Virus record (IMG/VR): IMGVR_UViG_2939152649_000003
Direction: 5' to 3' (one strand)
Length of the DNA stretch: 41,609 nt
Source of the DNA: a virus
Lineage: Duplodnaviria > Heunggongvirae > Uroviricota > Caudoviricetes
The notes beneath the pieces were generated by a model. The model was not told the origin of the DNA. It saw only the letters and a list, made by a program, of their open reading frames with translations, and did no database searches. This document shows positions 24,460-41,609 of the stretch, one piece after another (within the stretch, counting starts at the first letter, position 1; each line of letters opens with the position of its first letter). The position numbers were made by a program, and so were the translations under genes.

Positions 24460-24761
24460 TCTATAAATTCTTTGCCACTTCCCGGAGTGGCCACGCTCAT
24501 GCCCTTGAGCTGCTGTCGCATCATCGCCGCTTATCACCGGTGCGCGTCTGGCTTTCGCGCTGCTTTACCGGAGCTATTTTTAATCTATGACCCTGACCCG
24601 TCACTACACAGGCTCGCTCAATGGCGACTCGGGGCAGCATCATGACTGCTGCATTGCCTTTCGGCTACGGTGTGTCCGTTCTACTCTACATTTTCATACC
24701 CTCCAGAAACGGCAAAGCCCCGCGGGGTTAACCGCAGGGCTTTAAACGAAGGCAGTAACCC

Positions 24762-28385: not shown

Positions 28386-28991
28386 TTGAAGCGAGTAGAG
28401 CGCGATTTTATCTGTCTGTTTAATTGTGTGTGGTATCAAGATTTCCCTGTGTTCAAAGGTGAATATATCAACCGTTCCAACTGGACCATTCATGTTGGCC
28501 TGGTCATGCGCGAGTGTGCAAAGTTAATGGGCGCAAGAACATTTTTTGAACAAGGCGGGCGTACCGATGCGGTCCTACAATATCCAGACAATCAAATTTT
28601 AACCTATGTTGAGTGGGAGTATAATCAGGCAGACAGAGATAGCGTTAACGAGTTAGACAAACTGCTTGAAAAAAACGACAAGTGCTATTTCTCCACATTC
28701 ATCTCATATTGTCAGCATGAAAACATCAATATTGTTATTGAAAAAGCAAGTAGAATATGGAGTGAAGCAAGCAGGCCTTTGATTTTTTTTCTTATCACCT
28801 ATGAGCCTCAAACGAAAAAACGCCGCCATTTTTTAGAACTCAGAACTTATTTTTTCTCAAACGGCAAAAGAAAACTAGTTCGCAAACAACCTGCGCTTCC
28901 ATGGGATATTGAGCAACGAAATACAATGTCGAAGAAGATGCAGGATAGAAGAGACATAAGGTTTTCACGACAGTCTCGTTTCGAGCCCTAA
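28386..28991 (+). CDS. Hypothetical 201-aa protein (AT-rich accessory gene)
   Basis: ORF beginning at TTG 28386. Contains YPDNQILTYVEWEY and IVIEK, faintly reminiscent of a PD-(D/E)xK nuclease core. Confidence 0.5.
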   Translation: MKRVERDFICLFNCVWYQDFPVFKGEYINRSNWTIHVGLVMRECAKLMGARTFFEQGGRTDAVLQYPDNQILTYVEWEYNQADRDSVNELDKLLEKNDKCYFSTFISYCQHENINIVIEKASRIWSEASRPLIFFLITYEPQTKKRRHFLELRTYFFSNGKRKLVRKQPALPWDIEQRNTMSKKMQDRRDIRFSRQSRFEP

Positions 28992-30069: not shown

Positions 30070-30272
30070 TCAATATTGGCTCCGGCATTTCTGGATAAAA
30101 GCTTCTATGCTACGGCGCTCATAGCGAACAACCTTAGCGCTGAACTTTACACGGGGCCAATGTAGACCGGTGTCGGTGTTCTGTATTCCATTTACATAAT
30201 GTTTTTTTGCGTAATTCCCAGCTTCTGGCATACCTCGCCCGGAGTGAGGAGATCATCAGGTTGCTCAGTCAT
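30070..30272 (-). pseudogene. AlpA/Xis-like regulator remnant, disrupted by two frameshifts
   Basis: ATG at 30272 (GAGG RBS) gives MTEQPDDLLTPGEVCQKLGITQKN then a stop. The next frame reads TLCKWNTEH and the third reads GLHWPRVKFSAKVVRYERRSIEAFIQ. Joined, these form a 66-aa AlpA-like protein. Confidence 0.45.
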
Positions 30273-35347: not shown

Positions 35348-35554
35348 ATGGTTCATCAGCACTACGGTACACAGACAGTAAACCGCGGCGCAGTTCAGCC
35401 GGGGATGCTTGTAAAACACAAAGACTCAACCTGGACCGCATCTGCTAACGCACGCGGTCGCCTGTATCTTCACCGTGGCATCGAACGTACCTACACCAAA
35501 GATTTGCTGGTTGAGGTTTATCTAAACGGTTTAGGACATGGCCTTAGCCATTAA
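35348..35554 (+). CDS. Hypothetical early protein
   Basis: 68-aa ORF from MVHQHYGTQ with a GGAGAA RBS. The ORF-track start at 35204 is less convincing. Confidence 0.4.
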   Translation: MVHQHYGTQTVNRGAVQPGMLVKHKDSTWTASANARGRLYLHRGIERTYTKDLLVEVYLNGLGHGLSH

Positions 35555-35565
35555 CGGAGTGAGTT

Positions 35566-35727
35566 ATGCAGGAGAAAAAATGCGCGTACTGCCGCAAGCC
35601 GATCAAGCAAGGGAAGGAAGTTAAAAACGAACTGCTCTTTATCCACGGCACGCAGTTGAAACGCGAGCAACGTGATTACTGTTCAGTACGTTGCGCTTCG
35701 TTCGACCAGATGGCCCACGAAGCATAA
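35566..35727 (+). CDS. Small zinc-ribbon protein (53 aa)
   Basis: MQEKKCAYCRKPIKQGKEVKNELLFIHGTQLKREQRDYCSVRCASFDQMAHEA with a GGAGTGAG RBS. Below the ORF-track cutoff. Confidence 0.45.
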   Translation: MQEKKCAYCRKPIKQGKEVKNELLFIHGTQLKREQRDYCSVRCASFDQMAHEA

Positions 35728-35865: not shown

Positions 35866-38775
35866 ATGGAATTTTTCCATCTGATAAAAGCCAGTCAGAA
35901 GTCTGGCAAGAAAGATGCAGTGATTTGGTTCACTGCGAAAAGTGTAGCGCGCGCCAATCTCCAACTCGATGTGGCACTGGAAGAAGCCGGAATTGAAGAA
36001 ACTGGCCGCGGTAAAGATTATGCCAAACCAATCCGCACCGATTTCCCGGTATATGACGACCTGCCGGAAGAAGGCGCAGTGGATTACACCTGGTGCAAAC
36101 GCTACGAACTGCAGAACGATGACCGCACCTGGATGCCAAAAGTCACAGCTGAAAACTCTGACGAGAAAACGGCTCAGACCGTTGATAGTCACATAACTAC
36201 TGAGTCAACGCTGCCAGAAACCGCTGGCATCACGCTGGACGAACACGACGACGACTCAACCCTCTACCCGGTAGTGCAGATGCCGTTTCGTAAGCAACTG
36301 CTTTCCCAGTTCACCGCCGACGAACTGCGCCACCACGTAACCCGCGAAGAGTACGAAGCTATCGGCGCGCTGGAGATGGACACTGATAACAGTTACGTCC
36401 AGAACTTGCTGTTAGCTGCTGAGAACTGCCCGGACGTGAAGGGTTACGACACCAAAGACCTGTGGCGCTACACCGATGCCATTCGCAAAGTGTTCAGCCA
36501 GGACAAGCGTCACGAACTCGCGCTGGTACTCCGTTTCACCAGAATGTGGGCGGCGACTGATTACATTGACCGTGGCATCCTGGCGCGTGAATGGGCTGCC
36601 GGTAATCACATCAGTAGTGTTCAGCGTACTGATTCCGGAACCAATGCCAACGGCGGTTACGTCACTGACCGTGGACCTGATGCATACCATACCCTTGACA
36701 CTCTCGATTTAGAGATTGCATGTGCCCTTCTGCCTATGGACTTCAACCACTTCGAGATCCCGGGCAGCATTCTTCGTCGCGCTAAAGAAATCGTGACCAA
36801 AAAAGAAGAACCGTGGAAATCATGGAGCAGCATTCTGCGCAATCAACCCGGCGTTCTTGGCGTTAACCGCACAGCTATTTTTAACCTGATACGTATCGCG
36901 CCGGAAAATATTCATCTAACTCCTGTCGCTCACCTGGAGTTTGTTAACCGGACCATGACTGCTGCGTTTAATGCTGCTGTTGAGTTATTGCCATTGCATG
37001 AAGCTGAGCCCGCAACACAGGAAATTCCCCAACCTGAAAGTAAGGAGTCTCCACGCAAACCCTTCTGCACTCACGAAGAGAACCTGCAACGCGTACGTGA
37101 AGAAGAAGCACGCCGCCGCGCAGAGGAAGCGACAGCACAACCACATAAAGCCGAACAAGAACTGGTTAAAAATGTCGGCAACGGAATATTCGATGTTACG
37201 GCTTTACTGCAGAACTCAGCAACTCATGGCACGAAACAGGCTACGGAAACCACCAGCAATGTGCAGGTTCAAGAAACTGTCAGTGATGAAAAAAATGTTG
37301 GTAATGAAATGCAGTCAGGCGAAAGCAGTCTGGAAACTGGTGAAGAGTCACATCCCGGCCAGCAGGCCGATGTAAACCAAAATACGGAATCTGTCGCTCA
37401 AAATAGCGATTCTGTAAACCAGACTGAACCAGTTTTGGCACACGTCGAGCCAGAGGCGCAATCTGACGAACAAGCTGTTTTTTACCCCGATTACTTCGAG
37501 CCTGGGCGCTATGAAGGTCTGCCGAACGAGGTTTACCACGCTGCCAACGGCATCAGTTCCACCTAGGTAAAAGATGCGCGCGTTTCGCTGATGTACTTCA
37601 ATGCGCGCCACGTTGAGAAAACCATCGTCAAAGAGCGCTCCTCAGTGCTGGACATGGGAAACCTGGTACATGCGCTGGCGTTGCAGCCAGAACAGCTCGA
37701 TGAAGAATTTAGCGTTGAACCCGTAATTCCGGAAGGTGCATTTACCACCACGGCAACGATCCGCGCGTTTATTGATGAGTACAACGCCAGCCTGCCAGCG
37801 CAACTGAGCGCAGACGATATCAAAGCTTTGCTGGATGAATACAACGCCACCCTGCCAGCGCTGGTGCCGCTGGGCGCTAGCCTGGATGAAACGGCGCAGA
37901 ACTATATGGCGCTGCCAGCTGAATTCCAACGTATCGATGCAGATCAGAAGAAGACAGCAACAGCAATGAAGGCGTGCATCAAAGAGTACAACGCCACCCT
38001 GCCAGCGCAGATTAAAACCAGCGGCAGCCGCGACGCACTACTCGAACAACTTGCGATTATCAATCCTGACCTGGTCGCGCAGGAAGCTCAGAAGCTGCAA
38101 CCGCTGAAAGTCTCTGGCACGAAGGCCGATCTGATTCAGGCCGTGAAGGCAGTCAAACCAGATGCAGTGTTCGCCGACGAGCTGCTCGATGCGTGGCGCA
38201 ACAACCCGGAAGGGAAAGTGCTGGTTACCCACCAGCAACTTGCCACCGCGCAGGCAATTCAGTCAGCACTGCTCTCGCACCCGACCGCAGGCATGCTGCT
38301 AACCCACCCGAGCCGCGCCGTTGAGGTGAGCTACTTTGGCTTTGACGAGGAGACGGGACTGGAAGTTCGTGTGCGCCCTGACCTTGAGATCGACCTAGAC
38401 GGCGTGCGTATCGGTGCTGACCTGAAAACCATCAGCATGTGGAATGTTAAGCAGGAAAGCCTGCGCGCCAGGCTACACCGGGAAATTATTGAACGTGATT
38501 ATCACCTGAGCGCGGCTATGTACTGCGAAACCGCAGCGCTGGATCAGTTCTTCTGGATTTTCGTCAACAAAGACGAGAACTACCACTGGATCGCCATCAT
38601 CGAGGCATCCGCTGAACTACTGGAGCTGGGTATGCTCGAGTACCGCAAAGCGATGCGCAATATCGCAACCGGATTCGACACAGGTGAATGGCCAGCGCCA
38701 ATCACTGCTGACTACACCGACGAACTGAACGACTTCGACCTGCGCCGCCTTGAAGCGCTGCGTACTCAGGCATAA
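35866..38775 (+). pseudogene. recE: RecE-like exonuclease VIII gene interrupted by one in-frame amber codon (37564..37566)
   Basis: ORFs 35866..37566 and 37591..38775 share one frame, separated by a single TAG. The stop falls in YHAANGISST*VKDA, aligned with the lambda-exo motif WH..RLGVITASEV. The PD-(D/E)xK core RPDLEIDLDGVRIGADLK lies downstream. Confidence 0.6.
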
Positions 38776-38780
38776 GGGGA

Positions 38781-39899
38781 ATGATGATGGAAAACACGAA
38801 TATCGTAACCGCTGAACAGCAGACTCCAAACACGATCTCAGCCAGCAATGCCATTTTCAACGTGCAGGCTTTAACCCAGCTTCAGTCTGTCGCCGGGTTG
38901 ATGGCACAGGCAGCCGTAACGGTGCCTGAGCACCTCCGCGGCAATCCGGCAGACTGCATGGCCATCATCATGCAGGCGATGCAGTGGGGTATGAACCCTT
39001 ACGCCGTGGCGCAAAAGACGCACCTGGTTAACGGTGTCCTGGGATACGAAGCGCAACTGGTTAATGCGGTGATCTCCAGCTCAAACGCCATCGTTGGCCG
39101 CTTTCACTATGAGTACGAGGGCGACTGGTCGAAATGTGCCAGCAGCCGCGAGATAACCGTTAAAAAGCCTGCGAAAGGTGGCGGGACGTACGACAAGAAA
39201 GAAATGGTACGCGGTTGGGAAAGTGCTGATGAACAAGGACTGTCGGTACGGGTAGGTGCCGTTATTCGCGGTGAAAGTGATATCACCTGGGGAGAGCCTG
39301 TTTTCCTCTCCAGCGTAATCACACGTAATTCTCCACTTTGGGTATCAAACCCGAAACAACAGATCGCTTATCTGGCACTCAAATACTGGGCGCGCCTGTA
39401 TTGCCCTGCAGTTGTTCTTGGTGTGTACACCCCTGATGAGATTGAACAGCGCACAGAAAAAGAGATCAACCCAACGCCGCAACGCGTTAGCCTGGCTGAT
39501 ATCTCAGGTGACACCGTCACAACCACGCAAAGCGCACAGGAATCGTCGGTAAATGTCGACTCTCTTGCCGATGATTTCCGCGAACGCATCGAATCTGCTC
39601 AGGACGTGGATAGCGCCAAATCGCTGCGTGCCGACATTGAAACGGCGAAAGCTACGCTGGGATCCGCACTATTCACCGAGCTGAAAAACAAAGCCGTAAA
39701 GCGTTATTACCTAGTGGATGCACGCAACAAGGTTGAGGAGGCTATTAAATCCCTGCCCCAGCCCGACGAGCCGCATGCATCCGAACGGTTCGCTGAAGCC
39801 GAGCGCATGCTTGCATCTTCAAAGCGTCACTTAGGCGATGAACTGCACGATCAATTCAGCATCACCCTGGCGGATATGAAACCGGAATACGTGGCCTGA
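38781..39899 (+). CDS. recT: RecT-like single-strand annealing protein
   Basis: 372-aa ORF directly downstream of the RecE-like gene. The segment AMQWGMNPYAVAQKTHLVNGVLGYEAQL resembles the RecT core. Confidence 0.55.
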   Translation: MMMENTNIVTAEQQTPNTISASNAIFNVQALTQLQSVAGLMAQAAVTVPEHLRGNPADCMAIIMQAMQWGMNPYAVAQKTHLVNGVLGYEAQLVNAVISSSNAIVGRFHYEYEGDWSKCASSREITVKKPAKGGGTYDKKEMVRGWESADEQGLSVRVGAVIRGESDITWGEPVFLSSVITRNSPLWVSNPKQQIAYLALKYWARLYCPAVVLGVYTPDEIEQRTEKEINPTPQRVSLADISGDTVTTTQSAQESSVNVDSLADDFRERIESAQDVDSAKSLRADIETAKATLGSALFTELKNKAVKRYYLVDARNKVEEAIKSLPQPDEPHASERFAEAERMLASSKRHLGDELHDQFSITLADMKPEYVA

Positions 39900-39937: not shown

Positions 39938-40180
39938 ATGCGACTGATCAATCGAGGAAGTAAGCAATCACCTTTAGCTCGCCAAGCATGCGACATCGCG
40001 CTGGCAGCTCACTTGCAAACATATGGCGACTATGGGCGAAGCAAGATGAAAGAGACTTATACGGTGAAGGTTGAAGGCGTGAAAGTCTGGGTGGAGGTGG
40101 TGAACCGAAAGGCGAGCTACGTGGCCACAGCGATGACCGGCATGCGCCGTCTCCGCTCCCTGCCCGGGCAGGTTGGTTGA
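39938..40180 (+). CDS. Hypothetical protein
   Basis: 80-aa ORF with an AGGAG RBS between the recT-like and xis genes. Confidence 0.4.
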   Translation: MRLINRGSKQSPLARQACDIALAAHLQTYGDYGRSKMKETYTVKVEGVKVWVEVVNRKASYVATAMTGMRRLRSLPGQVG

Positions 40181-40221
40181 AAAAGATTTTGAATGGCCCG
40201 AACGGGCAACTGGAGAGAGCT

Positions 40222-40419
40222 ATGGATGATATTTTGGTAACGTCAGACCTGACCAGTCGCTACAAAATTTCACGCAAAACCCTTTGGTCATGGCAAAGTG
40301 CAGACACAATGCCTCGGGGCTTCGTATGCCCGTTCCCACCCCCTGACTGGCCCGGCAACCCTAACCGCTGGCGCTCTGAGTCAATCAAAGAGTGGGAGGA
40401 TAAAAAGAAGATAAATTAA
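40222..40419 (+). CDS. xis: Excisionase / AlpA-family DNA-binding protein
   Basis: 65-aa product [25 protein letters not shown]...FPPP...W with a GGAGAG RBS. Convergent with int. Confidence 0.65.
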
Positions 40420-41609
40420 CTGAAGGGCTCTCCGATGATCTCTTCAAGATGGCTCTGCCAAACGCGGAGCCAGTGTTTCTGATCATCGATATAGTCATGA
40501 AGGTTGTAATGCGCCATAACCCCCACCATCTGATGCCCGAGCAGCTTTTCAATTACGTGCGGCGGGCAACCTAACTCAGAGAGATTTGTGGCTATCGTCC
40601 GCCTCATATCATGAAGCGACCACTCTGCCATACCTGTTCCATTCCAAATAGAACGGGCGTAATTGGATGCCACAGGTGAATGAACGGGCGAATCTTTGAT
40701 CCCGCCATCAATTTTACGTTGTGAAGTCACCAGGTGATTGGTGTTTATTTTCTTGAGGTGATTTCTGACCAGGTTAACGGCGGCGTCTGAGAGTCCCCTT
40801 CTAATATGTACCCGAGTTTTATAACTGCCCGCAGGCACGACCCACTCATTATCATCCAATCGAAACCATGATCTCTCACTAAGTCGAATCTCAGCCGTAC
40901 GGCATCCGGTAAGCATAATAAATTTCACCAGGAAAACGGACTCTATCGACATATGGCTTTTCAACCACTGATAGATTTTGCGCAGATCGTCATCGTCCAT
41001 CCTGCGAGTTCTCTTTTTAGGCTTTTGCCCGACATCAGATGGCAGTAATCCCTCGAGTGGGTTTGAGGCGATCACACTTCTGTTAACGCAGAACCTAAAG
41101 GCCCGTTTGCACAGCGAAAGCATGTAATGAGCCATCACCCTGCTTTCTATAGAATCGAAGACGTTGATCCAGTGCATTTTCGCTGTGTTATCGACTTTGA
41201 CATTCTTCATCGGTTCGGCGATATGTTTCTCAAACACCTGGCGATAGTAATCGACTTTAACTAGCCCGTTAGCGATACAGTGCCTTTCAATCCAGTAATT
41301 GAACGCTTCGGCAACGGACATCGCTTCCTGTCGGGTCTGCTTATCCAGCTTCACCTGCTCTCGCGGATCCAGTCCCTCAGTTAACCAGTTTCTGAATTGT
41401 TGGCGACGCTCTCTTGCCTGGGTGATACTCATTGCAGGATAATCACCAACATTGAGTTTTACCGCTTTACCGGCCCAGCGATACCGATAGAAAAATGATA
41501 TTTTTCCGGCCTGGCTGATTCTGGCGTTGAGCCCGTGCGAATCAGAAATAATCTCGATATCATCTCTTTTCTTGCCGAGCGCCTTCCTGAGCTTTGTGTC
41601 GGTGATCAT
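40416..41609 (-). CDS. int: Tyrosine integrase (phage integrase family)
   Basis: 397-aa product with an N-terminal arm-binding domain and catalytic motifs (HDMRRT, LGH, HYNL). ATG is the last triplet of the window. Confidence 0.85.

Follow-up and report, generated by a model that had tools for sequence, protein, structure and literature searches.

Location of recE in a lambdoid prophage

The window, i.e. the whole stretch of 41,609 nucleotides that was analyzed, is a lambdoid E. coli prophage with its integration site beside kch. Positions 5000-41609 share 99.93% identity with a prophage of E. coli ES7 (36.6 kb; 24 mismatches and three single-base indels), and positions 16155-41609 share 99.89% identity with a prophage of E. 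coli PSJ-22. Both copies comprise lambdoid early, lysis, and late genes as well as a terminal tyrosine integrase adjoining the chromosomal kch gene. Since kch follows the integrase gene in these relatives, the element in the window was placed next to kch as well. The window starts with a serine recombinase gene and ends at the start codon of the integrase gene; thus, the prophage was apparently excised at gene boundaries and not at the att sites.

The recE gene belongs to an early-left operon with the gene order kil-ydaE-recE-recT-DUF4060 (Table 1). As already stated in the preliminary description of this DNA, the downstream recT-like gene is intact. It starts 6-12 nt past the recE stop, its product matches the Pfam model RecT (PF03837, E = 2.5e-36), and compared with its nearest relatives it carries just one change, a synonymous G>A substitution at 39359 (Gln191, CAG>CAA).

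Table 1. Features of the recE region and neighboring genes; positions refer to the window.
Feature	Position	Strand	Remarks
kil	35348-35554	+	same early-left operon as recE; from gene calls, Pfam labels, and annotation of relatives
ydaE	35566-35727	+	same early-left operon as recE; from gene calls, Pfam labels, and annotation of relatives
recE, 5' part	35866..37563	+	566 sense codons; N-terminal Exonuc_VIII domain, aa 4-181
First conserved nuclease-domain motif, YHAANGISST	37534-37563	+	very end of the recE 5' part
CTAGG	37563..37567	+	in all relatives a Dcm site (CCWGG) with the sequence CCAGG, whose inner cytosine, the target of Dcm methylation, is mutated here
Amber codon TAG, codon 567	37564..37566	+	from CAG (Gln), C>T at 37564; corresponds to Gln618 of Rac RecE
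recE, 3' part	37567..38775	+	402 sense codons and TAA; PD-(D/E)XK nuclease core, motif residues H602, D839, D852, K854
ATG ORF of 394 codons	37591..38775	+	starts with Met576, aligned with Leu628 of Rac RecE; only conceivable restart product; no upstream Shine-Dalgarno sequence
recT, intact	38787..39899	+	further in-frame ATGs at 38781 and 38784
Prophage integrase	40416..41609	-	at the window edge

An amber codon interrupts a single gene of the RecE family

Translation of positions 35866-38775 in one frame yielded 566 sense codons, a stop, 402 sense codons, and a terminal TAA at 38773-38775. The TAG at 37564-37566 is the sole stop inside this 969-codon frame; it lies in the sequence ATC AGT TCC ACC TAG GTA AAA GAT GCG, and the peptide context is exactly YHAANGISST*VKDA. 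The single-frame translation bears out the earlier view of two ORFs in one frame split by one in-frame amber codon. That the ORFs are separated only by TAG, as was also claimed, holds for the frame, but not for the ATG-started ORFs, as the 394-codon ORF begins eight sense codons beyond the TAG. In the list of open reading frames, the upstream ORF also has a longer version starting with GTG, and the relatives are annotated with the ATG at 35866. The exact 566-aa product is present in databases as SQE58118.1 / WP_434061540.1, and the 394-aa ORF is deposited separately as SQE58119.1.

Both halves were assigned by protein family models. The N-terminal half matches Pfam Exonuc_VIII (PF06630) over residues 4-181 (E = 2.6e-22; 80.1 bits versus a cut-off of 25), and the C-terminal half matches the PDDEXK domain DUF3799 (E = 2.1e-11), with 44.5-47.2 bits of the PD-(D/E)XK nuclease domain against PF12684 (cut-off 26). 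Moreover, both halves match the NCBIfam model NF007259 for exodeoxyribonuclease VIII in a collinear manner, at positions 11-404 and 638-874, and therefore represent one gene. These results agree with the earlier assignment to a RecE-family exonuclease gene carrying a single amber codon. With 265 and 153 bits, neither half reaches the equivalog cut-off of NF007259 (1269 bits), which fits a family member of the Gifsy-1 type and not an equivalog or orthologue of Rac RecE. Intact relatives are named "RecE family exodeoxyribonuclease" in RefSeq, and close relatives have one unbroken CDS of 2910 nt at this site. Here, the frame running from the N-terminal domain to the nuclease is interrupted by the TAG at codon 567, and by the open-reading-frame criterion recE is a pseudogene of the RecE family.

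Gene callers and GenBank list two separate proteins (SQE58118.1 and SQE58119.1), as would be expected for two unrelated genes sharing a frame by chance or for a natural two-gene arrangement. However, the collinear matches to one exonuclease VIII model, the conserved motif running across the stop, and the DNA alignments, in which every relative has a single CDS with CAG, refute such an arrangement, and we attribute practically no probability to it.

Ancestral codon and comparison with other RecE proteins

The codon CAG is found at the position of the stop in all five relatives aligned on the DNA level, namely the prophages of PSJ-22, UPEC85, and H6 and the phages mEp237 and HK225. It is likewise found in ES7, in five other Logan or ENA metagenome contigs, and in four further contigs encoding an identical RecT. 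The relatives with CAG have intact recE annotations or calls of 969-1129 aa. On the protein level, the position is occupied by Gln in PSJ-22, UPEC85, H6, mEp237, HK225, Gifsy-1, PHB10, and Rac RecE (Gln618), and by Met in only one sequence, that of Klebsiella phage ST16-OXA48phi5.1; none of the aligned homologues has Glu. The preliminary description had proposed GAG as the ancestral codon from the Glu of lambda Exo. With CAG in all close relatives and no aligned Glu, this proposal proved wrong, and a lambda Exo-like Glu ancestry is ruled out by the RecE-family alignments. The change was a C>T transition and not a G>T transversion.

The earlier placement of the stop inside the conserved N-terminal nuclease-domain motif was correct, as EVYHAANGISSTQVKD of the window pairs with ENYHAGPGISKSQLDD in the alignment to crystal chain 3H4R of Rac RecE (residues 606-866 of the 866-aa protein of E. 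coli K-12). This motif and the H / RPD / D-x-K motifs are common to both proteins; H602, D839, D852, and K854 align with H652, D748, D759, and K761 of Rac RecE, for which the paper on 3H4R reportedly describes a catalytic role. A recT gene downstream of recE is a further common feature of the two prophages. In contrast, the similarity to Rac RecE is distant (phmmer E = 8.7e-6 against 3H4R), the nuclease domain encoded in the window has insertions totalling ~140 aa that are absent from Rac RecE, and the element lies beside kch, whereas Rac lies beside ttcA.

Closer counterparts are the RecE and RecT systems of Gifsy-1, mEp237, and HK225, with which the window shares the gene order kil-ydaE-recE-recT-DUF4060-int and the combination of an N-terminal Exonuc_VIII domain with a C-terminal PDDEXK nuclease. 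The DNA identity of recE is 92% to mEp237 and 96% to HK225, and the nuclease part shows ~80% DNA identity to Gifsy-1, Gifsy-2, and several Klebsiella phages. In contrast to Gifsy-1, mEp237, and HK225, the window has TAG in place of CAG at codon 567, and the nuclease domain is consequently not translated within the protein.

The nuclease-domain insertions (~37780-38290, RecE residues ~638-808) contain three copies of EYNA(S/T)LP (37777, 37837, 37984) together with a pair of SAP-like helices, SGSRDALLEQLAII and SGTKADLIQAVKAV, for which the match to Pfam SAP was weak (E = 0.084). They are common to Gifsy-1, PHB10, and the Klebsiella phages and could form an added DNA-binding module.

Origin of the mutation at a Dcm site

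The C>T change affects the inner C of an ancestral CCAGG. In the restored recE gene, 310 nonsense substitutions are possible, 74 of them transitions. Only four of these (4/310; 4/74 of the transitions) would result from C>T or G>A at a methylated base in one of the 11 CCWGG sites of recE, and the observed change is one of the four, which makes a hotspot origin considerably likelier than a random hit. Of the ~20 window-specific differences from ES7 and PSJ-22, none except the change at 37564 affects a Dcm site.

Deamination of 5-methylcytosine at CCAGG to thymine, giving CTAGG, accounts for the classical lacI amber hotspots at Dcm sites (Coulondre et al. 1978; reviewed in PMC12606429). The recE mutation is of the same kind, with C>T at the second C of CCAGG turning CAG into TAG, but it represents one natural event in a prophage gene, in which methylation of the site and deamination are inferred. 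As the mutated base is the inner C of CCAGG, spontaneous deamination of 5-methylcytosine at this hotspot would be the most likely origin. This attribution is drawn from a single event; one event cannot prove a mutational mechanism, and a replication error gives the identical C>T.

Age, rarity, and reality of the amber allele

Only two transitions, the nonsense mutation at 37564 and the synonymous one at 39359, distinguish the 4034 nt of recE-recT in the window from those of ES7 and GCA_001413745. Among 5426 complete E. coli genomes, no perfect match to positions 37000-38200 was found (best 99.9%), and the exact 44-nt pattern carrying the TAG had no match in viral_contigs and genome_contigs. 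Three contigs encode exactly the 566-aa product. For the identical RecT protein, the index lists 584 blocks, and in all 23 contigs read there recE is intact with 969 or 1093 aa. Given two transitions in recE-recT and such a rare product, the TAG allele is very young, rare, and confined to one lineage, and "recent pseudogene", one of the options named in the preliminary description, is the best reading.

Five contigs with the same 394-aa ORF (L010-L014) were considered as further amber alleles and rejected, because all have CAG and their splits result from upstream frameshifts or contig ends. In four of them (L010, L011, L012, and L013; Logan ERR4087472 and ENA metagenome contigs), frameshifts upstream of this region break up recE, and the shifted frames all stop at a +1-frame TAA just downstream of the CAG codon; the recT gene of L011 is broken up as well. 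These four could be independent pseudogenes or error-prone assemblies.

The sources of the truncated product include a 4.7-Mb NCBI contig (SQE58118.1) and a contig assembled in Logan from run SRR1118451. This Logan contig has the same sequence as the window over 11.7 kb, with the TAG, the recT change at 39359, and all of recE-recT (100%) included. The two diverge only in a T-run at 30202, which is one T longer in the window than in the Logan contig, ES7, and PSJ-22; hence, the two assemblies are distinct. A literature search on this strain and run found no publication.

The preliminary description had named a base-call error as one explanation. A sequencing or assembly error, with C as the true base at 37564 and an intact recE, is compatible with the uniqueness of the allele against the 5426 complete genomes. 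In addition, the window assembly is not error-free, as it shows three single-base differences in homopolymer length from ES7/PSJ-22, at 24590, 28919, and 30202, and at the last of these positions the Logan contig sides with the relatives, which points to at least one probable error in the window. Changes in homopolymer length are the usual type of long-read error, and the three differences are probably errors of this type. However, they are indels and not substitutions, and position 37564 lies outside any homopolymer. The second assembly carries the same TAG, which renders a base-call error unlikely, and the synonymous recT change is likewise present in both assemblies. Altogether, we consider such an error at 37564 very unlikely.

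Owing to the indel at 28919, a hypothetical gene is read in another frame over its last ~10 codons and encodes 201 aa in the window (28386-28991), compared with 187 aa in the relatives.

An amber mutant that was isolated on purpose or selected in a laboratory would also be restricted to one lineage, as this allele is, and classical phage and lacI genetics recovered amber mutations at CCAGG (PMC12606429). Yet the same event arises spontaneously, and no second nonsense change is present among the 27 differences from ES7, so that selection in a laboratory appears highly improbable.

Consequences for RecE and possible residual function

The stop is located ~12 residues into the segment aligned with the crystallised Rac RecE domain (606-866) and precedes every motif residue. 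With all catalytic motifs downstream of the stop, the 566-aa product would be devoid of the nuclease, and judged from the sequence the most likely outcome is loss of RecE activity. Rac RecE fragments described as active begin at residue 564 or 588, and the crystallised domain at 606 (PMC11611040, PMC11257833). All three constructs contain the mutated position. They were used for comparison, since the exact N-terminal limit of active RecE was not found in a literature search.

Still, recE could be functional, or conditionally so, by means of a host amber suppressor, basal readthrough, or a nuclease fragment reinitiated at the ATG at 37591. Rac RecE does not need its N-terminal part for nuclease activity (PMC11611040, PMC11257833), an in-frame ATG follows eight codons past the stop, and the downstream frame is fully open, just as in the relatives. 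Since the mutation is so young, however, an open downstream frame is expected regardless of function. A restart at Met576 would yield the equivalent of Rac RecE 628-866, which is shorter than the active (564-866, 588-866) or crystallised (606-866) fragments found and devoid of the conserved YHA..GIS.SQ motif. Furthermore, no Shine-Dalgarno-like sequence was detected in the 24 nt before the ATG at 37591.

With respect to suppression, homologues have Gln or Met at the position, and a glnV/supE-type suppressor would restore the wild-type Gln. The preliminary description had considered a gene active only under amber suppression, for which we found nothing in support. No tRNA gene is present in the window, TAG terminates 7 of the 53 CDS in the ES7 copy of the prophage, none of the CDS of this copy contains an internal stop, and TAG at this recE position is absent from every relative examined. 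Without a tRNA gene in the window and with TAG as a normal terminator, code reassignment or a phage-borne suppressor was rejected. As Met is accepted in one homologue, the position is not strictly essential, and low-level near-cognate readthrough of the TAG would give active protein, which would amount to at most traces of full-length RecE. Taking these points together, we regard a recE that is still functional, even conditionally, as unlikely.

The "RecE-2" proteins of lambdoid phages have no nuclease domain (PMC12315714), and in this respect the 566-aa product, a RecE N-terminal protein without nuclease, resembles them. They are, however, distantly related natural genes, whereas here the nuclease coding sequence continues unchanged past a stop that is one base change old. 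The existence of such proteins leaves a small chance that the N-terminal fragment has a role. Conceivably, the fragment keeps a function of its own and is complemented by low nuclease levels from readthrough or a restart at Met576, giving a viable split or attenuated RecET system tolerated or favoured in the lysogen. This analogy-based scenario has only a slim probability, and no sign of selection for a split recE was seen in these data.

Loss of the nuclease may not be the only effect, as the stop leaves ~1.2 kb of untranslated mRNA upstream of recT, and recT expression may be lowered by nonsense polarity.

A recent recE pseudogene as an early step of prophage decay

The observations comprise the stop itself, the codon from which it arose, its location in a Dcm site, a rare and young allele, and the same TAG in a second assembly. 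From these, we conclude that recE is very probably a recent nonsense pseudogene, created by a Dcm-site C>T at 37564 in one lineage, with loss of the nuclease and the beginning of prophage decay. The course of events would have started from a lambdoid prophage beside kch with a recE gene of the Gifsy-1 / mEp237 / HK225 type in the kil-ydaE-recE-recT operon. At the inner C of a CCAGG site, a 5-methylcytosine would have deaminated spontaneously to thymine and escaped very-short-patch repair, so that codon 567 changed from CAG (Gln) to TAG in one lineage. Translation would then end after 566 residues, keeping the N-terminal domain and omitting the nuclease, and double-strand-end recombination by the prophage RecE/RecT system would be lost or strongly reduced. 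As the operon is repressed in the lysogen, the mutation was probably neutral there, and the amber allele may be seen as an early step of ordinary prophage decay.

This is ordinary recent pseudogenisation with a textbook mutational signature, a known kind of decay that involves no new mechanism, and it has little importance beyond annotation. SQE58118.1 and SQE58119.1 are the two parts of a single recE pseudogene, which their annotation should state, and a working RecET system should not be assumed for this prophage. Beyond that, the locus provides a tidy natural case of the textbook CAG>TAG hotspot at a Dcm site in a repressed prophage gene, and a view on the first step of prophage decay while the remaining element is essentially unchanged.

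Further features of the element

Upstream of kil, three window-specific substitutions (35050, 35057, and 35073) lie inside 24 nt of intergenic sequence and are also present in the Logan assembly; this cluster could be a small recombination patch or a regulatory-site change. A DinI-family gene on the minus strand starts with GTG in the window (27894) and with ATG in ES7 and PSJ-22. Between DUF4060 and the convergent integrase gene, an 80-aa ORF (40177-40419, plus strand) had no Pfam match and no annotation in the RefSeq relatives; at this place, an excisionase is annotated in mEp237 and HK225. The invertase-like serine recombinase gene, which occupies positions 1-549 exactly at the window start, adjoins tail-fibre genes, which suggests an invertible tail-fibre segment. 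Finally, the tetranucleotide CTAG occurs 17 times in the whole window of 41.6 kb, compared to ~160 expected from length alone, and one of these rare occurrences was created by the amber mutation at 37564.
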